A stretch of DNA of 64,000 nucleotides from Crocinitomicaceae bacterium (GCA_042094515.1 JBELDA010000005.1:22077-86076); one strand, 5' to 3'. Shown: positions 3,681-23,946, counted from the first letter of the stretch. Notes: generated from the letters alone by a model not told the origin. Numbers and translations are program-made.

Positions 3681-3728
3681 AGGAATAATTTGAATCCAAA
3701 TATACGAAACTCAAGTTTTTCGCTCGTA

Positions 3729-3756
3729 TAGATTTGCACCTTTAATTGTACATTTG
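3729..3756 (+). promoter_or_regulatory. candidate Bacteroidota -7 promoter boxes upstream of the DAACS transporter
   Basis: Two exact matches to the Bacteroidetes sigmaA -7 consensus TAnnTTTG: TAGATTTG (3729-3736) and TACATTTG (3749-3756). They lie 37 and 17 nt upstream of the ATG at 3773. Confidence 0.35.
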
Positions 3757-3772
3757 TTTAAAATTTTGAATT

Positions 3773-5161
3773 ATGAAGAATTTGGCATTGCATTGGAAAA
3801 TCATGATAGGTATGGTTTTAGGTGTAGTTTGGGCCTTAATTTCTGGTTATGCAGGCTGGAATGAGTTTACGATTGATTGGATTGATCCATTTGGTGTAAT
3901 ATTCATTAATTGTCTGAAGTTTATCGCTATTCCCTTGGTTTTATTTTCAATTGTAGGTGGTGTAGCGAGTCTTGGGAATGTACGTCAGCTGGGTAGGATA
4001 GGAGCTAAAACGTTGGGTTTATACCTTCTTACCACGGTAACCTCGGTTACATTAGGATTAAGCTTGGTGAATTTTATTAAACCTGGGAATAATTCAATGG
4101 AGAATACAAATCGCCTTCGTTATGAGATTTGGGCGCATTCTGAAGGCCAAGAAATCAAAGATGGAAAAAATGTACTCCAAAATGCAGACCCTGTTTTAAT
4201 AAGAAAAATTGAGAAATCTTTATCAGAAGAAAAGAGCTCTTCCGACTATCAAAAAATGATGTCAAAGAATGAAGAAGCCAAAAAAAGAGATCCAGGCCCA
4301 CTTCAGCCATTTGTTGATATGGTACCTGAAAATCTCGTAAAATCATTTTCTAGTAGTAAGCTGATGCTTCAGGTTATCTTTTTTGCCTTGTTTTTTGGGG
4401 TTGCACTTTCGATGCTTCAAAATGAGAAATCGAAAAAGGTTCATGAGTTTTTTGACGGTATGGGAGAGGTATTTATTAAAATGGTAAACATGATTATGGC
4501 CATTTCACCTTTTTTTGTTTTTTGTCTAATGGCAGGTGTTTTGGCAAAAATTGCAAATTCACCTTCAGAATTATTTTCATTATTTAGTACACTTGGGTTA
4601 TATTCCTTGGTTGTATTGCTTGGTCTAAGCTTATTGCTTTTTGGTTTTTATCCTTTATTGCAAAGAATTTTTGGTGTTCGTTATGGGTATATGGATTTCT
4701 TTAGAAAAATGAGTCCTGCCCAGTTTCTTGCCTTTTCAACGAGCTCAAGTGCTGCGACCCTTCCTGTTACTATTAGATGTGTTGAAAAAGAGCTAAAGGT
4801 TCCTAAAAAAGTTAGTGATTTTGTTTTGCCCATAGGTGCGACTGTTAATATGGATGGCACCTCTTTATATCAAGCTGTGGCAGTGATTTTTTTAGCACAG
4901 TTTCATGGTGTGGATTTGACTATTTCACAACAGATTGGTATAGTTGCAACTACTACTTTAGCTTCAATCGGTTCTGCTGCTGTTCCAAGTGCTGGTTTAA
5001 TTATGCTGATGTTTGTATTGTCTTCCGTAGGATTGAATCCAATGTGGATTATAATCATTTATCCAATTGATCGTATTCTTGATATGTGCAGAACCGTAAT
5101 TAACGTTACTAGTGATGCAACGGTGGCTGCTATTGTTGCCAAATCAGAAGAGGGGAAATAA
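3773..5161 (+). CDS. dicarboxylate/amino acid:cation symporter (DAACS/GltP family) with enlarged hydrophilic loop
   Basis: 462 aa, multi-TM. Family blocks SSSAATLPVT and GATVNMDGTSLYQAVAVIFLAQ, plus the C-terminal DRILDMCRTVINVTSDA. Confidence 0.85.
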   Translation: MKNLALHWKIMIGMVLGVVWALISGYAGWNEFTIDWIDPFGVIFINCLKFIAIPLVLFSIVGGVASLGNVRQLGRIGAKTLGLYLLTTVTSVTLGLSLVNFIKPGNNSMENTNRLRYEIWAHSEGQEIKDGKNVLQNADPVLIRKIEKSLSEEKSSSDYQKMMSKNEEAKKRDPGPLQPFVDMVPENLVKSFSSSKLMLQVIFFALFFGVALSMLQNEKSKKVHEFFDGMGEVFIKMVNMIMAISPFFVFCLMAGVLAKIANSPSELFSLFSTLGLYSLVVLLGLSLLLFGFYPLLQRIFGVRYGYMDFFRKMSPAQFLAFSTSSSAATLPVTIRCVEKELKVPKKVSDFVLPIGATVNMDGTSLYQAVAVIFLAQFHGVDLTISQQIGIVATTTLASIGSAAVPSAGLIMLMFVLSSVGLNPMWIIIIYPIDRILDMCRTVINVTSDATVAAIVAKSEEGK

Positions 5162-5164
5162 GCT

Positions 5165-5779
5165 TCAGCTCAGTATCTCTATCAACATGGATGAGTCAAT
5201 ATCGTGATTTCCGTCATAAACATGTGTCTTAAATCCGATATTCTGATAAAACTCAATTTCTTTTTGACGCATTTTATCGTTAATAAATTCGTCTTTGCTA
5301 CCAACTACATAAAAATTAGCTTTTGACATCTTAAGATTTGGTTTTGTAATATCTGGTGGAAACACGGAGGACCATAGAATTAGCTTATCAAATTTATTTG
5401 GATCATCATAATACCATCGAGCAGCTGTCGCACCTCCTTGGGAAAACCCGAGAAGAGAAACCTCTTCAAAAGATTTTTCTGACTTAACTTCATGGAGCAA
5501 GGCATTGAGCCAATTTAAGTTGTCTTTAATGTCATCTGCTCGTGCTTCTTTTGTCATCCAAGAAGCACCAACCCGGCCTGAATATCCCTGTTTATAAAAT
5601 CTGTGAGGCCCTTCAGGCGCTATAATAAAATAAGAGCTAGGGGAAGAATGAAATTTCCTTAAAAAATATTCAGCAAGATGTCCATATCCATGCATGACGA
5701 TTAATAATTTTTTAGATTTCATTTTGTCGCCATGAGTGAAATATCTATAGGTCTTTGAATAAGAAAAACTATGGTCCAT
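5165..5779 (-). CDS. alpha/beta hydrolase (phospholipase/carboxylesterase family)
   Basis: 204 aa. LLIVMHGYG, the nucleophile elbow GFSQGG, and a late GNHDI catalytic His region. Confidence 0.7.
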   Translation of the reverse strand: MDHSFSYSKTYRYFTHGDKMKSKKLLIVMHGYGHLAEYFLRKFHSSPSSYFIIAPEGPHRFYKQGYSGRVGASWMTKEARADDIKDNLNWLNALLHEVKSEKSFEEVSLLGFSQGGATAARWYYDDPNKFDKLILWSSVFPPDITKPNLKMSKANFYVVGSKDEFINDKMRQKEIEFYQNIGFKTHVYDGNHDIDSSMLIEILS

Positions 5780-17960: not shown

Positions 17961-19061
17961 ATGAAACCGCTGATTAGTATAATATTATTCATTTTCTTAG
18001 GTCAATTTTCTTTTTCTCAGTGTGATGGGGTTACCATTGAATCCATAACTGATCCTGGTCCATATTCCGTTGCAACATTAAAAGAAGGGGTTGACGATAT
18101 CCGAAATGGACCAGATTATGATGGTGCGACCATTTTTTATCCTACAAATGGGACACCTCCATATGCAGGAATTGCTATAATACCTGGCTATTGCGGAGTA
18201 GAAACAGACATTCAGGACTGGGGGGCTTTTTATGCTTCTCATGGAATTATAGCCATAACTCTGGGAACAAATGATCCATGCGCAGATTGGCCATCGGCTA
18301 GAGCAACTGCTTTACTAGATGCTATAATCACCGTAAAAGAGGAGAATTCCCGGTCAAGTTCTCCTTTACAGGGAAAAGTGGATGTAAATAGCTTCGCTGT
18401 TTCTGGTTGGTCTATGGGTGGAGGAGGCTCCCAACTTGCAGCTTCTATAGACCCCTCATTAAAGGCGGTGATTGGATTGTGTCCTTGGCTGGATTTAAAT
18501 GGTTTTCAACCCTCTGATCTCATACATGATGTTCCTGTTTTAATATTTACGGGACAAAATGATGATATTGCCAATTCTGCAGAGTATGGTTATATGCATT
18601 ATCAAGGAACTCCTTCAAATACTGATAAGCTTTATTTTGAAATTGAAAACGGTGACCATGGTGCTGCAAATTCGCCAGGCTTAGCCGCTGGAGAGGTCGG
18701 GATTTATGCGCTTTCTTGGTTGAAAACGTATTTACAAGATGATCCTTGTTATTGTGGGTTTCTATTGGAGACTCCATCAAATTCTTCAGATTATGAAACA
18801 AATATTGAATGCTTGAATACTGCTGTTGAAGGAATAAATGAAACCATTCATTTTATCCATCCGAATCCGGTAATAGACTATATTGAATTAAATAATTCAG
18901 GAATAGAAAAAGAATATTCCCTAAATAGCTCTGATGGCAGAACGGTTAAGTCTGGTATTCTATCTCCTGGCTATAATAAGATCATATATAAATTCAATTC
19001 CTCACAGATCTATTTTCTTATCTCAGGTGGTCAGTCGTATAAATTGATAAGCTTAAAATAG
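17961..19061 (+). CDS. secreted PETase/cutinase-like polyester hydrolase (dienelactone-hydrolase fold) with T9SS C-terminal sorting domain
   Basis: Signal peptide. Blocks matching IsPETase as I remember it: FYPTN, IAIIPGY, ASHGIIAITLGTN, SSSPLQGKVD...GWSMGGGGS (Ser151 at 18411-18413), PSLKAVIGLCPW, VPVLIFTGQNDDIA, FEIENGDHGAANS. The C-terminal ~70 aa (HPNPVIDYIELNN...YFLISGG.SYKLISLK) looks like a type-A T9SS CTD. Confidence 0.8.
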   Translation: MKPLISIILFIFLGQFSFSQCDGVTIESITDPGPYSVATLKEGVDDIRNGPDYDGATIFYPTNGTPPYAGIAIIPGYCGVETDIQDWGAFYASHGIIAITLGTNDPCADWPSARATALLDAIITVKEENSRSSSPLQGKVDVNSFAVSGWSMGGGGSQLAASIDPSLKAVIGLCPWLDLNGFQPSDLIHDVPVLIFTGQNDDIANSAEYGYMHYQGTPSNTDKLYFEIENGDHGAANSPGLAAGEVGIYALSWLKTYLQDDPCYCGFLLETPSNSSDYETNIECLNTAVEGINETIHFIHPNPVIDYIELNNSGIEKEYSLNSSDGRTVKSGILSPGYNKIIYKFNSSQIYFLISGGQSYKLISLK

Positions 19062-19076
19062 CTGTGTTTTGAACTT

Positions 19077-20786
19077 ATGAAAGCATTTATTTCTTCAATT
19101 TTCCTATTACTTTCAGTCATTTCTTATGCTCAATATGAAATGAGTTCAAATGAAAGTCCTACATATACAGAGCTTATAGGTATTTTGAAAGATTTAGCTG
19201 ATTCTTCAAATGTCATTGAGCTGTATTCAATGGGCTCTTCAGACTATGGTCTTCCTATTTATCTATGTATGGTTAATGGTGGAGAAGATTCATTGGTTGC
19301 CTTTAAAAGAGCAAGAAATGAAACTACTATTTTATTCAACAATGCGATTCATCCAGGTGAACCAGATGGAATAAATGCTATGCTCATTTGGTTGAAAAAG
19401 GTGTCTCAAAACCCTCAATTGTTAACTGATCTGCCAATAATTACATTTATCCCGGCTTATAATGTGGGGGGCATGATGAATCGATCAGGAGTGAGTAGAG
19501 CTAATCAAAATGGTCCCATAGAATATGGATTTAGAGGAAATGCACAAAATTTAGATTTAAACCGGGATTTCATCAAGATGGATTCTAAGAATTCGTTTAC
19601 TTTCACTAAGATATTTCATGCGTTAGATCCTGATGTATTTGTTGATAACCATGTATCTAATGGAGCAGATTATCAATATACCCTAACATATATTTCCAGT
19701 CTCAAGAATCGTATGGCTCCGAGTATAAGAAAAATATCGCAAGAGAGCTTATTACCGGTCATAAAGGACGCTATAAAGAAAAACTATTCATTGGACCTTT
19801 TTCCCTATGTAGATTTGGTGGGGCAAACACCGGAGCAAGGCATTGTATCTTTTAATGATTTGCCAAGGTATTCAATGGGATATACAGCACTGTTTCAGTC
19901 CATTTCGTTTACAGTTGAAACTCATATGCTTAAGCCTTTTCCCGAAAGGGTTAGAGCTACTTATGCGTTCATGGATGAAATCATAAAATGGACAGCAAAT
20001 CATAAGGAGCTCATTGAAGAATCACGTCAAAAGGCAAAGGAATATACATCATCTAATCCCCATCTTTTAGTTGATTTTAAAAAAGTTGAGAGTTCACACG
20101 ATTCTATTTTATTTAAGGGTTATGAGCATAGCTTTCCAAAGCATCGAATAACGGGGCTGAATAGGCTAAAATATGATGCGTCTGTTCCGTATGAAAAATT
20201 TATTCCACACTATCATCACTTTGAGCCTATGGATACCATAAAAGTTCCAGCATATTATTTTGTAGGGAGGCAAGAAAAGGATGTTGTTAAAAGATTGAAG
20301 GCAAATAAGATCAAAATGTCTAAAATTTTAAATGATACCATCATTAGTTTAGGTGTTTTTCGTATTGCTGATTTTGATGTGTCAAAAAGGCCATACGAAG
20401 GCCATTTTTTCTTACGTAATCCTCAAGTAAAACGAGAGAATCAGCGTATACGCCTTAAACGTGGAGACTGGAAAATATCATCTAGTCAAGAGAATGCCTT
20501 ATTTCTTCATTCAGTATTGCAACCAGAAGCAGAGGATTCATATCTAAGCTGGAATTTTTTTGACAGCTATCTTCAGCAAAAAGAATATTTTTCGAGCTAT
20601 GTCTTTGTGGATAAAATAGGGGAGATTTTAAAACAAGATCCTGAATTAAAGAAGAAATACAAAGCAAAGCTCAAAGAGGATGACGCGTTTCGCGATTCAG
20701 AATGGGACCAGCTGTATTATATATATACAAACAGCCCGTATTTTGAAAAAACCTACGGTGTTCTTCCTGTCTATTATCAGTATTGA
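19077..20786 (+). CDS. M14-family zinc metallopeptidase (carboxypeptidase-like)
   Basis: 569 aa with signal peptide MKAFISSIFLLLSVISYAQ and the HxxE zinc motif in NNAIHPGEPDGINAM. It starts 15 nt after the esterase gene on the same strand. Confidence 0.75.
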   Translation: MKAFISSIFLLLSVISYAQYEMSSNESPTYTELIGILKDLADSSNVIELYSMGSSDYGLPIYLCMVNGGEDSLVAFKRARNETTILFNNAIHPGEPDGINAMLIWLKKVSQNPQLLTDLPIITFIPAYNVGGMMNRSGVSRANQNGPIEYGFRGNAQNLDLNRDFIKMDSKNSFTFTKIFHALDPDVFVDNHVSNGADYQYTLTYISSLKNRMAPSIRKISQESLLPVIKDAIKKNYSLDLFPYVDLVGQTPEQGIVSFNDLPRYSMGYTALFQSISFTVETHMLKPFPERVRATYAFMDEIIKWTANHKELIEESRQKAKEYTSSNPHLLVDFKKVESSHDSILFKGYEHSFPKHRITGLNRLKYDASVPYEKFIPHYHHFEPMDTIKVPAYYFVGRQEKDVVKRLKANKIKMSKILNDTIISLGVFRIADFDVSKRPYEGHFFLRNPQVKRENQRIRLKRGDWKISSSQENALFLHSVLQPEAEDSYLSWNFFDSYLQQKEYFSSYVFVDKIGEILKQDPELKKKYKAKLKEDDAFRDSEWDQLYYIYTNSPYFEKTYGVLPVYYQY

Positions 20787-20787
20787 A

Positions 20788-21750
20788 TTAGAACGAAGGA
20801 CAAGAAATCTTTCTAAATACTTTTGGTTTTCTTCTACACTTGAGATTGAATCCCATTGAAACTTCATGTGACCCACCAGAAATACCATTTCCTAATTTAG
20901 AAACGGTAATATCATAGCTATAACCGAGCTTAAACTTATCAGTAGTAATACCAAAGCAAAGAATAAAGGCGTCTCTATTTCTATACCATGCACCTACGGT
21001 AAAGTTTCCATACTTTACATAAGTACCAATATTTAATTCCTGAAATCCATTTTGATATTGATAGATGATGTTAGGCATGATACTCGTCGTATTGTAATAT
21101 TTACCTCTATTGCCAAGTTTAATATTGGCACCGACATGACCGGTAAGACGCATTGGTAAACGAGATTCACCAAGAATCATCGATTCATCTGGTCTGTTAA
21201 TATGATGAGCGGCAAATCCAAAATAGAAGTTTTTACCAAAACCTACCAATCCTGCTGAGGCATCAAAAAAACCTCTTCTACCGTTTCCACGCGGTACATC
21301 CCCTGTTTGATAGATAAATCCTCTACGTGGATCTATCATGTCGCCAAAAGTGAGCTTGTCCCAGTCCAGGAATTTTTGAAACCAAGCAGCTCGAGCACCA
21401 AACATGATAGAGAATTTACGATTGACTTTCAGATTATACGAATATATGGCGCCAAGCATAGATGTGGTAATGGTGCCTTGTCCTTGCTGATCGTGCATGG
21501 CAATAATACCAATACCTCCTTGAATTCCTTTTGAATATGTGTCAAAAGCAGCAGAGTAGGTTACATAATTACCAGTAAGCTGTGGCCATTCGTTTCTGTA
21601 ATTCAATGAAACTCTTGGACAACCAGAGGAACCTGCCAATGCTGGATTCAAATAAATTGGATTTGAGAAAAATTGAGTAAAAGTTGGATCCTGAGCATTA
21701 AGCTGTGGGCTTATACAAACTATTGCTATAATAAAGAGTAATTTTTTCAT
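20788..21750 (-). CDS. PorP/SprF-family type IX secretion system membrane protein
   Basis: 320 aa. The signal peptide is followed by the family-typical QDPTFTQFFSNPIYLNPALAGS, then YRNEWPQL. The C-terminus is ...SHEVSMGFNL...ISCPSF. Confidence 0.8.
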   Translation of the reverse strand: MKKLLFIIAIVCISPQLNAQDPTFTQFFSNPIYLNPALAGSSGCPRVSLNYRNEWPQLTGNYVTYSAAFDTYSKGIQGGIGIIAMHDQQGQGTITTSMLGAIYSYNLKVNRKFSIMFGARAAWFQKFLDWDKLTFGDMIDPRRGFIYQTGDVPRGNGRRGFFDASAGLVGFGKNFYFGFAAHHINRPDESMILGESRLPMRLTGHVGANIKLGNRGKYYNTTSIMPNIIYQYQNGFQELNIGTYVKYGNFTVGAWYRNRDAFILCFGITTDKFKLGYSYDITVSKLGNGISGGSHEVSMGFNLKCRRKPKVFRKISCPSF

Positions 21751-21753
21751 ACG

Positions 21754-23388
21754 TTAAAATGTTATGTACCTTCTTGTTTTCTTACTGATGTCAGAGTTTA
21801 TTCTTATTGTTAATTGATGAGTATAAAGATGTTGATTCAAAGTTGGAATATATGATTTTGTCGATTGAAGAATAAGTGCAAATCGATCCAGTGACAAACC
21901 AATTGAGCCAGAGTATTGGTCATTGAAATCTGCAGCTGCTCCTATATAAAGTTTATCCAAGTCAAGTGAAAAACCTCCGAAGTATTGATTGTTTTTATTT
22001 GCGGATCGCATGTAAAAATAAGGATGAAAGCTCAACTTTTCATTCCTAGAAACGTATTGTGTTCCTGCAAAAATGCTATACACGGTTGGTGTTCTGAAGT
22101 TTGTTGATTCAGTATTTTGATAAATGTTCTCTGAGTGATTCAAGATGTTAGAGGCTTGAGCTCCAATATAAAATATGTTGGTATTTAAAGTGAAGCCAAT
22201 ATCTAGATCCCTATACCATAGTTTTCGTCCTACATTTTGAGAACTGTCATAAGAGAATAGCTGAGGTGAATCTGAATTAAAAACGGCCAATGAATTGTTT
22301 TCTACTTTATCTCGATCTAATAATTTATTACCTATTTTTAGTTTGGCTACGGGTTCAATTAAAATATTTCTGCTAATAGCTATTTTTGGTGATACGATAA
22401 GCGCCCCGTTCCAATCTTTAATACTTCCATCTGCATAGTAATCATAGTTTACTTGAGCTCCAACACCAGAACGAATGCCCCTTGCATAAGTATCAAATGT
22501 GATTTGCTGAGATAGTTTACGTTGATCTGATTCCATCCATCTTATACGTGAAATAGATTGGAATCTTGTTTGGGAAACCGAGCCAATAGAACTAAGATTC
22601 GCATCTATAGAGGAAGTTTGAGGAATTAAGTAATGGTGGTCTCTATAATTGCTCAAAGCCACATTTTTTGATAGGGCATGATCAATTTTATTAATCACTT
22701 CTTTTGTCTTGTCTTTGATGCGAAACGAATTGGATTCACTATTTCTTGATTCCTTTGCATCAGATGATAAATCAGAATTTTCACCAATTGAGATATTCGT
22801 TTTATGTTTTGCCAACTCAAGATCTTGGTTAACGAATAATCTTTCGACTAATAAATTATTTACATTAAAAGATTCTGATACCTGAAAAATTTCTTGATCC
22901 ATCAAGCCAATTGATTTCTTCGGTTTTTTATAGAAGCTTGGAGGCAATTCAGTAGCAAGGTAATCCGAGCTTGATGATTTCACATCTTTTTTTATTGAAC
23001 TCTTATTGTCATTTATTCGTTCAGGCTGTTGAATGTCGATTGAGAGTTCTTTTGAGTTTTTGATTCTATTTTCGCTCAAAACGGGAGAGACCGAGTTTAA
23101 CGGATCATTAAAATGAATTTGTCTACCAATGAGCAGAATAATAATGATTCCAATTGTGTTTATTATGGCAAAAACCCTTCTGTTTACCGTTTTCTTTTGA
23201 ATTTGAATATCGTTTACAAAAGAATTGGACATTTTAATATTGGACATTTTCCACATGTCTAAATCAACCTCAAGTTCTGGGTGATTTAGGATATAATTCT
23301 CCAGTAATGACTCTTGTTCAGAACTCAAATTGCCTTCGACATAGTCAAAAAGCCAACGGTCTATGTTGTCAAAATTTGGGGTTATCAT
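21754..23388 (-). CDS. putative anti-sigma factor fused to a PorP/SprF-like C-terminal domain
   Basis: The N-terminus DRWLFDYVEGNLSSEQESLLENYILNHPELEVDLDMW is anti-sigma-like. There is one TM helix at aa 71-88 and a low-complexity linker. Residues ~250-544 align by eye with the adjacent PorP/SprF protein (FDTYARGIRSGVG vs FDTYSKGIQGGIG, among others). Overlaps the ECF sigma gene by ATGA. Confidence 0.6.
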   Translation of the reverse strand: MITPNFDNIDRWLFDYVEGNLSSEQESLLENYILNHPELEVDLDMWKMSNIKMSNSFVNDIQIQKKTVNRRVFAIINTIGIIIILLIGRQIHFNDPLNSVSPVLSENRIKNSKELSIDIQQPERINDNKSSIKKDVKSSSSDYLATELPPSFYKKPKKSIGLMDQEIFQVSESFNVNNLLVERLFVNQDLELAKHKTNISIGENSDLSSDAKESRNSESNSFRIKDKTKEVINKIDHALSKNVALSNYRDHHYLIPQTSSIDANLSSIGSVSQTRFQSISRIRWMESDQRKLSQQITFDTYARGIRSGVGAQVNYDYYADGSIKDWNGALIVSPKIAISRNILIEPVAKLKIGNKLLDRDKVENNSLAVFNSDSPQLFSYDSSQNVGRKLWYRDLDIGFTLNTNIFYIGAQASNILNHSENIYQNTESTNFRTPTVYSIFAGTQYVSRNEKLSFHPYFYMRSANKNNQYFGGFSLDLDKLYIGAAADFNDQYSGSIGLSLDRFALILQSTKSYIPTLNQHLYTHQLTIRINSDISKKTRRYITF

Positions 23389-23882
23389 GCGAGCTTATTC
23401 AATCCTTTTAACTGTTTTTTAATTTTCATTCTTGCACGGAAGAGATATACCTTTACTTGCGACGGAGACAAATCAAGAATTTGTCCAATATCATCGTAAG
23501 AGTAGCCCTCTATGTCTCTTAACAGAATAATACTTTTTTGAATTGGAGGTAAAATGTTCACTAGCCTTTCAACCATTTGCATAGATTCAAAAGTCGAATC
23601 TGGCATGCTTGCTTTTTCAGGAAGTGATTGGCTATCCATGTAGCGCGTACGTGACTTTTTGTTTAAAAAGTTAATCATCGCGTTGTGCGTACATTTATAT
23701 AACCAAGATTTTACTCTTTCCAAATCAATTTTTTTTCTGTTGATCCATAATTTTTCAAAAACATCTTGAACAATGTCCTTTGCATCCTCTTCGTTTCTCA
23801 TAAAGTGAAACGCATAACGATACAGTGGAGCACTAAGCTCATCAATCACATTGTTATATTCATGTCTTTTCAAAACTTGCAA
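23385..23882 (-). CDS. RNA polymerase ECF-type sigma-70 factor
   Basis: 165 aa. Region 2 is LYRYAFHFMRNEEDAKDIVQDVFEKLW. Region 4 is SIILLRDIEGYSYDDIGQILDLSPSQVKVYLFRARMKIK. TTG start. Confidence 0.85.
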   Translation of the reverse strand: MQVLKRHEYNNVIDELSAPLYRYAFHFMRNEEDAKDIVQDVFEKLWINRKKIDLERVKSWLYKCTHNAMINFLNKKSRTRYMDSQSLPEKASMPDSTFESMQMVERLVNILPPIQKSIILLRDIEGYSYDDIGQILDLSPSQVKVYLFRARMKIKKQLKGLNKLA

Positions 23883-23911
23883 TTACAGTTAATACAAATT
23901 GAATAGGTCAA

Positions 23912-23946
23912 AAGTTACAGGTCTTGTAACTTCTTAAACAAATATA
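23912..23946 (-). promoter_or_regulatory. candidate -7 box (TATATTTG) plus 8-bp-stem hairpin upstream of the ECF sigma operon
   Basis: On the minus strand, TATATTTG (23939-23946) matches TAnnTTTG. The hairpin AAGTTACA-ggtct-TGTAACTT (23912-23932) lies between it and the TTG start at 23882. The hairpin could instead be a weak terminator of the upstream Nudix-regulator gene. Confidence 0.3.

Follow-up and report, generated by a model that had tools for sequence, protein, structure and literature searches.

Anti-sigma factors predicted or shown to reach from the cytoplasm to the outer membrane have been described in Bacteroidota. In Phocaeicola vulgatus, the anti-sigma factor M0N98_03760 was predicted in 2022 to span the periplasm and to carry a C-terminal outer-membrane barrel (PMC9308784). 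The Dma family, which is restricted to Bacteroidota, was subsequently defined by Pardue et al. (PNAS 2024; PMC10927553). In that study, residues 1 to 40 of Dma1 (BT_4721) from Bacteroides thetaiotaomicron were shown to pull down Das1, a sigma factor of the extracytoplasmic function (ECF) group ECF21, and the Dma barrels were assigned to the 8-stranded OMP_b-brl_2 type. Full-length Dma1 was present in total membranes, where both of its tags were detected, whereas outer-membrane vesicles contained C-terminal fragments only. The processing of Dma1 depended on the growth phase, and the full-length protein was lost in stationary phase (PMC10927553). Here, we analyze a stretch of 64,000 nucleotides from a Crocinitomicaceae bacterium (GCA_042094515.1, JBELDA010000005.1:22077-86076), which we refer to as the window. 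It contains a three-gene operon for an ECF sigma factor, a protein of 544 amino acids and a PorP/SprF protein of 320 amino acids. We propose, with a probability of roughly 0.62, that the 544-amino-acid protein is a dual-membrane anti-sigma factor of the Dma type whose sensor barrel is PorP/SprF-like.

PorP/SprF proteins serve as shuttles or anchors for cargo proteins with type-B C-terminal domains (CTDs) in type IX secretion systems (T9SS), and the supply of these shuttles limits secretion (PMC12618676). Orphan PorP/SprF shuttles, such as Fjoh_1677, have also been identified (PMC9143113, PMC12618676). For the sigma factor, the closest named relative is SigCH (PG0214/PGN_0319) of Porphyromonas gingivalis, which has been reported to regulate cdhR and hmuYR, genes involved in the use of hemin (PMC5607195); the product of the gene downstream of SigCH has merely been presumed to be an anti-sigma factor (PMC7712824). 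The Dma-type sensors known so far are all from gut Bacteroidales and have small barrels of 8 strands. The PorP/SprF family has a defined job in the handling of T9SS type-B cargo, and a sensor built on such a barrel would therefore permit a concrete and testable guess at its input and output.

Gene order and domain layout of the operon

The three open reading frames (ORFs) were located in the same direction on the minus strand (Table 1). The stop codon of the sigma gene and the start codon of the gene for the 544-amino-acid protein overlapped in an ATGA sequence, the junction reading ...GCATGATAAC..., while the TAA stop codon of the latter gene was separated by only 3 nucleotides, CGT, from the ATG start codon of the PorP/SprF gene, the junction reading ...TTTTAAcgtATGAAA.... 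No sigma-70-type promoter or terminator was detected above chance inside the operon in simple consensus scans, and no second pair of sigma and anti-sigma genes was found in the window. This tight packing was already recognized in a preliminary description of the locus, which was based on the nucleotide sequence, and both the ORFs and the junctions were as given there.

The current annotation labels the 544-amino-acid protein merely as a PorP/SprF membrane protein. Its C-terminal half indeed matched the Pfam family PorP_SprF (PF11751) over residues 269 to 528, with a score of 54.6 bits compared to the cutoff of 22.3 bits. It was also 23% identical to the adjacent 320-amino-acid protein over 261 amino acids (BLASTP, E = 3e-4), a result that reproduced the alignment blocks between the two barrels that had previously been drawn by eye. 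A full-length AlphaFold2 model was built from an alignment of 20 sequences and contained three short N-terminal helices, a helix at residues 70 to 90, a disordered segment at residues 91 to 221, another helix at residues 222 to 239 and finally 14 long strands, as assigned by DSSP. The model thus had a barrel of about 14 strands in its C-terminal half, and all of its fold matches in the PDB were outer-membrane barrels, with the T9SS protein PorV in first place. The protein ended in a conserved basic tail, SKKTRRYITF. The fused copy contained no cleavable signal peptide; in its place were the anti-sigma-like module, the transmembrane helix and the tether described below. Because the C-terminus resembles a PorP/SprF barrel, the best reading is a single polypeptide predicted to span the envelope.

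Since the fold search with the full-length model was dominated by the barrel and the scores were weak, the N-terminal module was modelled separately. The module on its own was predicted to form three helices with a predicted local distance difference test (pLDDT) score of 89. A fold search of the PDB with this model yielded matches to 8 chains at E ≤ 10, 7 of which were domains of ECF anti-sigma factors that had been crystallized together with the sigma factor. These were RslA, ChrR and RsiW (3hug, 2q1z, 2z2s, 5wuq), with TM-scores of 0.70 to 0.77 and root mean square deviations of 1.1 to 2.8 Å. The module was also the most conserved segment of the 544-amino-acid protein in the family alignment. 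The suggestion that the N-terminus is anti-sigma-like thus holds up well, as the fold matches were essentially to RslA, ChrR and RsiW only and the coupling to the sigma gene was strict. In the window protein, the zinc motif was replaced by NHPELEVD, and the ligands H-x3-C-x2-C of zf-HC2 were absent. Given a fold of the zf-HC2 class in an N-terminus that has neither a profile match nor zinc ligands, we regard it as an anti-sigma-like domain of class I, which would bind the sigma factor but not zinc.

A single hydrophobic helix was identified at the position proposed in the preliminary description, both by hydropathy and by AlphaFold2, and hydropathy profiles indicated that a single transmembrane helix after the N-terminal domain is conserved across the family. 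The helix is preceded on its N-terminal side by the basic stretch KKTVNRR, which argues for an orientation with the N-terminus inside the cell. Cleavage by signal peptidase after the helix was considered and ruled out, as no small-x-small site was seen in the sequence.

The long and variable linker that had been noted after the helix was found to be both disordered and hypervariable in the family. The pLDDT values were below 35 over residues 91 to 221, and the conservation values of 0.33 and 0.20 were the lowest in the protein. Among 194 distinct relatives, the distance from the end of the transmembrane helix to the pre-barrel motif ranged from 144 to 244 amino acids, with a median of 163. The tether is thus free to change in sequence but never shorter than 144 amino acids, as would be predicted for a spacer that spans the periplasm. 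The motif that follows it could be a docking or a cleavage site. It was also noted that the pre-barrel helix is amphipathic and that the pre-barrel region aligned to nothing in the adjacent stand-alone PorP protein.

The ECF sigma factor passed the NCBIfam equivalog model NF058625 (139 bits, cutoff 130). Its ORF contained two in-frame TTG codons located 9 nucleotides apart (23873-23882). In all homologs, the start was the conserved TTG codon that yields a protein of 162 amino acids, and the real start in the window is therefore probably the second TTG codon at position 23873 rather than the one at 23882. The coordinates given earlier for the sigma ORF were confirmed, whereas the length of 165 amino acids should probably be revised to 162. 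At the other end of the operon, the 320-amino-acid protein exceeded the cutoffs of both the Pfam and the TIGR03519 models, and its N-terminus, with signal peptide, reads MKKLLFIIAIVCISPQLNA/QD. The stop codon of this gene was located 1 nucleotide from the stop codon of a convergent gene for an M14-like peptidase (20786-20788 in the window), so that neither strand has intergenic space for a terminator.

Table 1. Features of the operon in the window, listed in the direction of transcription, with the evidence for each and the median amino acid identity of related sequences to the window.
Feature	Position	Strand	Evidence	Median identity
ECF-type promoter-like motif, TGTAACTTTT-N7-tcAAaTTGTtTTAACTG	23879..23924	-	fixed spacing in 69/69 distinct loci; position weight matrix 57 bits	
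ECF sigma factor (PG0214/SigCH, GFO_1088 family)	23385..23882	-	Pfam Sigma70_r2 and Sigma70_r4_2; NF058625	62%
Gene for the 544-amino-acid protein	21754..23388	-		
Anti-sigma-like module, residues 1-50, three helices, predicted cytoplasmic	23239..23388	-	conservation; AlphaFold2; PDB fold matches	48%
Single transmembrane helix, residues 71-88	23125..23178	-	family hydropathy scan; AlphaFold2 helix at residues 70-90	
Hypervariable, disordered tether rich in S, N and K, residues 89-221, predicted to cross the periplasm	22726..23124	-	pLDDT; conservation; length	
Conserved pre-barrel helix and motif NKIDxxLSKxxAxSNYRDHxYxIP, residues 222-256	22621..22725	-	conservation resumes; AlphaFold2 helix 222-239	
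Divergent PorP/SprF-type beta-barrel, residues 257-531, about 14 strands, with tail and stop codon	21754..22620	-	PF11751; TIGR03519; DSSP; fold matches	40%
Canonical PorP/SprF protein, 320 amino acids, signal peptide; best conserved gene of the operon	20788..21750	-	PF11751 194.8 bits; TIGR03519 236.7 bits	73%

Conservation of the operon and its promoter-like motif

A scan of species-representative genomes identified relatives in 193 genomes, and 80 loci were kept. The features of the related loci were determined by our own ORF calling and by searches with hidden Markov models (HMMs). Nearly all of the 80 loci were from assemblies of Crocinitomicaceae or other Flavobacteriales, many of them of marine and freshwater origin. 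Crocinitomicaceae-type operons were also present in 7 metagenome-assembled genomes titled Chryseobacterium gleum, Akkermansia sp. or Chitinophaga pinensis (loci L028, L036, L040, L045, L058, L061 and L075), the taxonomic labels of which are probably wrong.

Of the 84 related loci, 77 had an intact fusion ORF. The sigma gene was located directly upstream of it in all 70 loci where this could be tested, with an overlap of 4 nucleotides in 57 of these and of 1 nucleotide in the other 13. Likewise, a gene for a PorP protein of about 320 amino acids was located directly downstream in 54 of 54 testable loci, with a gap of at most 8 nucleotides in nearly all of them. Identical 544-amino-acid proteins were encoded by 7 and by 6 independently assembled contigs, and full-length homologs were found down to 26% identity, which shows that the ORF is not an artefact. 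Taken together, these sequence comparisons indicate a genuine fusion that arose long ago and is under selection.

An exhaustive HMMER search with a profile of the N-terminus retrieved 1,180 representative clusters. Among the best 150 clusters at 50% identity, about 70 shared the layout of module, transmembrane helix, spacer and barrel, with lengths of 526 to 629 amino acids, and about 45 contained 2 to 5 tandem copies of the module followed by a single transmembrane helix. The OMP_b-brl_2 barrel was found in none of these top 150 relatives. One of the multi-copy proteins, P0152 from Chitinophaga japonensis, passed the cutoff for zf-HC2 and is named anti-sigma factor by NCBI. The tandem-module proteins (P0146, P0152, P0155, P0168 and about 40 further clusters) ended in a low-complexity periplasmic tail. 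It was also noted that, in the two cases with readable flanks, the tandem-module gene was located directly after an ECF sigma gene and before a gene for a PF13568 outer-membrane barrel (4001-5323 in loci L146 and L147, and 3715-5124 in locus L149).

Upstream of the sigma gene, we identified a promoter-like motif with the conserved core TGTAAC-N19-TTTTAACTG, which ended about 10 to 20 nucleotides before the conserved TTG start codon in the 69 distinct sigma-upstream regions. No further site of at least 12 bits was detected in the window, and none besides the sigma promoters in 726 kb of related loci, while 61 of 61 exact matches in a metagenome collection preceded a homologous sigma gene. From its sequence distribution, the motif is therefore specific to the operon within the window, the 726 kb of related loci and the exact metagenome matches; weaker sites elsewhere in the genome are possible. 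The simplest reading is that the operon would be positively autoregulated from this putative promoter and the predicted transcription start next to it, and that the transcript would have the PorP gene as its main cargo. The TGTAAC box and the T-tract that follows it resemble the -35 element of ECF promoters, as in the sigma-X and sigma-M sites of Bacillus. An inverted repeat, GTTAC-N7-GTAAC (about 23900-23930 in the window, minus strand), overlapped the -35-like box and was retained in the closest relatives only. The repeat may serve as an operator for a different regulator; an NrtR-type regulator is the product of the upstream gene.

Elsewhere in the window, a gene on the plus strand (17961-19061) encoded an esterase of the PETase-like or dienelactone-hydrolase type (PF12740, 179 bits) with a signal peptide. 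Its final 80 amino acids or so resembled a T9SS type-A C-terminal sorting domain by eye, and no Pfam match was obtained for this segment at E = 1e-3. In one related genome (locus L001, 12879-13683), a CHU_C protein of 1,393 amino acids with a type-B CTD was encoded on the strand opposite to the operon and about 4 kb downstream of it; the matching position of the window had no counterpart.

Proposed mechanism and alternative explanations

From the gene order and coupling, the domain and fold identities, the conserved length of the tether and the operon-specific motif, all of which were shown here, we infer the following series of events. The three-helix module in the cytoplasm would sequester the co-translated ECF sigma factor, and one helix would anchor the 544-amino-acid protein in the inner membrane. 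The disordered tether of at least 144 amino acids would then span the periplasm and reach the outer-membrane barrel. Proteolysis of the tether and of the anti-sigma part, in the way proposed for Dma1, would be triggered by an event at this barrel. Once released, the sigma factor would use the TGTAAC...TTGTTTTAACTG promoter to transcribe the operon that encodes it. Induction of the operon would raise the level of the co-transcribed and conserved PorP/SprF shuttle, while newly made sigma and anti-sigma factors would reset the switch.

As for the signal, the candidate to which we tentatively give most weight is the state of the T9SS pathway for type-B cargo and shuttles. General stress on the outer membrane or on barrel assembly is given slightly less weight, and the remainder is unassigned. 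The preliminary description had presented the system as wired to type IX secretion, which was read from the barrel family only; such a link would be plausible. Since there are orphan shuttles and secretion is limited by how much shuttle is supplied, it is attractive to think of a loop where expression of the real shuttle is controlled by a tethered paralog. On the sole basis of the family of the barrel, its obligate partner gene and a motif restricted to the operon, we tentatively suggest, as a possibility that is still doubtful, that the fused barrel is a tethered decoy shuttle that reports the load of T9SS type-B cargo and shuttles, and that essentially the one task of the freed sigma factor is to adjust the supply of the conserved PorP/SprF shuttle from its own operon. 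If true, transcriptional feedback would for the first time be seen to connect directly to the T9SS at its outer-membrane part, and Dma-type anti-sigma factors would prove to be modular, with different barrels available to them as sensors.

Several observations weigh against the proposal of a Dma-type anti-sigma factor with a PorP/SprF-like barrel. The fused barrel, although well above the Pfam cutoff, scored only 70.6 bits on the TIGR03519 model, which is below the cutoff of 90.55, so that the assignment to PorP/SprF proposed in the preliminary description is upheld by one model and not by the other. In the relatives P0135 and P0141, no match to Pfam PorP_SprF was obtained at E = 0.01. The full-length model had a modest mean pLDDT of 51, and its TM-scores to solved barrels were low. 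Furthermore, the N-terminal 100 amino acids of the window protein had no Pfam match at E ≤ 10 and none in NCBIfam, and in a sequence search of the PDB with N-terminal profiles, the narrow profile gave no match and the broad profile nothing meaningful. A direct profile match to anti-sigma domains was thus lacking for the window protein. In a set of 60 module instances from relatives, zf-HC2 was the most frequent Pfam match (12 of 60), which favors an anti-sigma domain, but its E-values were weak; DUF4880 was touched weakly by 2 of 60. The preliminary description had noted that the operon contains no type-B CTD cargo gene; there was also no CHU_C or type-B CTD gene adjoining the operon, either in the window or in the syntenic loci, nor was any T9SS gene, PorE-like or other, linked to it. 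Finally, the flavobacterial ECF motif SM6 has a CGT -10 box, which is absent from the promoter-like motif.

A dual-membrane anti-sigma factor could also carry a barrel that senses only in a generic way whether the outer membrane is intact or barrels are being assembled, as suggested for Dma1 and the Phocaeicola ortholog, with no tie to the T9SS and with a PorP/SprF scaffold that happened to be recruited from the neighboring gene. A general envelope or barrel-assembly signal of this kind, as proposed for Dma1, fits nearly as well as the shuttle-feedback loop. The Dma systems known to date react to stress on the envelope, and what they control is vesiculation or lipopolysaccharide rather than secretion; moreover, the fused barrel is a marginal and fast-evolving member of its family (40% median identity compared to 73% for the neighboring PorP), which is linked to no cargo or T9SS genes and has an aromatic residue or Leu at its very end, as barrel-assembly signals do. 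However, the sole target of the motif that was detected is an operon with a strongly conserved PorP/SprF shuttle and not a stress regulon, and the PorP gene was an obligate partner in all 54 testable loci. We therefore consider a generic sensor possible, but hold this explanation with no great confidence.

An unlikely explanation, but one that deserves mention, is that the fusion serves co-expression only and that the tether is cut soon after export, giving a short membrane-bound anti-sigma factor and a free PorP-like barrel, with no signalling between the two membranes. The C-terminal fragments of Dma1 and the loss of its full-length form in stationary phase point in this direction, as does the hypervariable and disordered tether, which should be an easy substrate for proteases, and other lineages encode the barrel separately after the anti-sigma gene. 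However, full-length Dma1 was detected with both tags, no site resembling that of a signal peptidase follows the transmembrane helix, and the fusion was intact in the great majority of loci and down to 26% identity; in particular, the conserved minimum length of the tether makes early cleavage into two proteins less likely. We regard it as very improbable that the N-terminal module is something other than an anti-sigma domain and that the 544-amino-acid protein is a PorP/SprF paralog tethered to the inner membrane, with the sigma factor controlled by other means. The lack of sequence matches for the N-terminus and the Foldseek E-values of 3 to 9 would be in line with this, but 7 of the 8 fold matches were anti-sigma domains at small deviations, no other part of the protein is as well conserved as the module, and the module always follows this type of sigma gene with translational coupling, also in unrelated architectures. 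The chance that two genes were joined into this ORF by an assembly error or a frameshift is negligible, and this explanation was ruled out for practical purposes: nothing was found in its favor, the identical proteins were encoded on 13 contigs from independent sources, the ORF was intact in 77 of 84 loci of different species, and about 70 of the best 150 clusters at 50% identity shared the architecture.

Comparison with known systems

The sigma factor of the window exceeds the cutoff of the NCBIfam model named after SigCH of P. gingivalis. The targets of SigCH are related to hemin and no link to PorP is known, unlike the situation in the window operon.

The logic of the proposed switch, in which a signal passes from an outer-membrane barrel via an inner-membrane anti-sigma factor to an ECF sigma factor, is shared with the FecA/FecR/FecI systems, including the SusC-like transducer systems of Bacteroides. 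In the window operon, receptor and anti-sigma factor would be parts of one polypeptide that has no plug or signalling domain, and energy coupling by TonB is not expected. None of the FecR, DUF4880 and DUF4974 domains was matched in the 544-amino-acid protein in Pfam, and the operon encodes no TonB-dependent transducer. Membership in the FecR type was therefore rejected, and the earlier suggestion of a FecA/FecR/FecI-like logic stands as an analogy, without the transducer and the domains of these systems.

Compared to the PorP/SprF shuttles PorP, SprF, Fjoh_1677 and Fjoh_3951, the 320-amino-acid protein is a typical member of the family, and like Fjoh_1677 it is an orphan in the sense that its gene does not follow a gene for type-B cargo. 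The fused C-terminal domain also matches the family HMM. It differs from the shuttles in that it has neither a signal peptide nor a free N-terminus and is instead tethered to an inner-membrane anti-sigma module. Moreover, it is a divergent copy, below the TIGR03519 cutoff, and no cargo, PorE-like or T9SS gene is adjacent to it.

Homologs of the N-terminal module were also found in operons where the barrel is separate, as in Chitinophaga japonensis (WP_145711024) and its relatives. Here, an ECF sigma gene encoding 161 to 162 amino acids is located directly upstream, and a barrel is encoded by the third gene; the Chitinophaga sigma factor, the one that was scanned, also has NF058625 as its best NCBIfam match. 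These operons differ from that of the window in that the module is repeated 3 to 5 times and followed by a low-complexity periplasmic tail, and in that the separate barrel belongs to PF13568 (OMP_b-brl_2). Since unfused operons with a sigma factor, a tandem-module anti-sigma factor and a barrel occur both in Chitinophaga and in a second lineage, the theme of sigma factor, module and barrel exists in fused as well as unfused form.

The closest parallel is with the Dma family, here taken to comprise Dma1/Das1, Reo/EcfO of Bacteroides fragilis and M0N98_03760, in a comparison based on the described architecture. The preliminary description had considered the architecture to be undescribed, but the same design was noted for M0N98_03760 in 2022 (PMC9308784) and shown experimentally for Dma1 in 2024 (PMC10927553). 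The architectural class is thus known. We could not find a description of a PorP/SprF barrel, an obligate PorP partner gene or an operon-restricted promoter in such a system, and no mention of PorP/SprF or the T9SS in the context of dual-membrane anti-sigma factors was found in the Dma paper, the Dma2 preprint or other literature.

Common to the Dma family and the window operon are the N-terminal sigma-binding domain, predicted as such in the window protein, the inner-membrane helix, the disordered tether and the C-terminal barrel. In both cases, the gene is located directly after that for an ECF sigma factor and is restricted to Bacteroidota, the anti-sigma factor evolves faster than the sigma factor, and the sigma factor is probably autoregulated. 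The differences concern the barrel, which belongs to PF11751 and has about 14 strands here compared to OMP_b-brl_2 and 8 strands in Dma1, as well as the obligate third gene for a canonical PorP/SprF protein. The sigma factor of the window was assigned by the NCBIfam model for PG0214/GFO_1088; Das1 belongs to ECF21. Finally, the only target of the motif that was found here is the operon itself, while the regulon of Dma1 includes NigD proteins and controls vesiculation. If our reading is correct, the PorP/SprF variant, the operon of which is present in at least 193 species-level genomes, would show that the dual-membrane anti-sigma design is modular.

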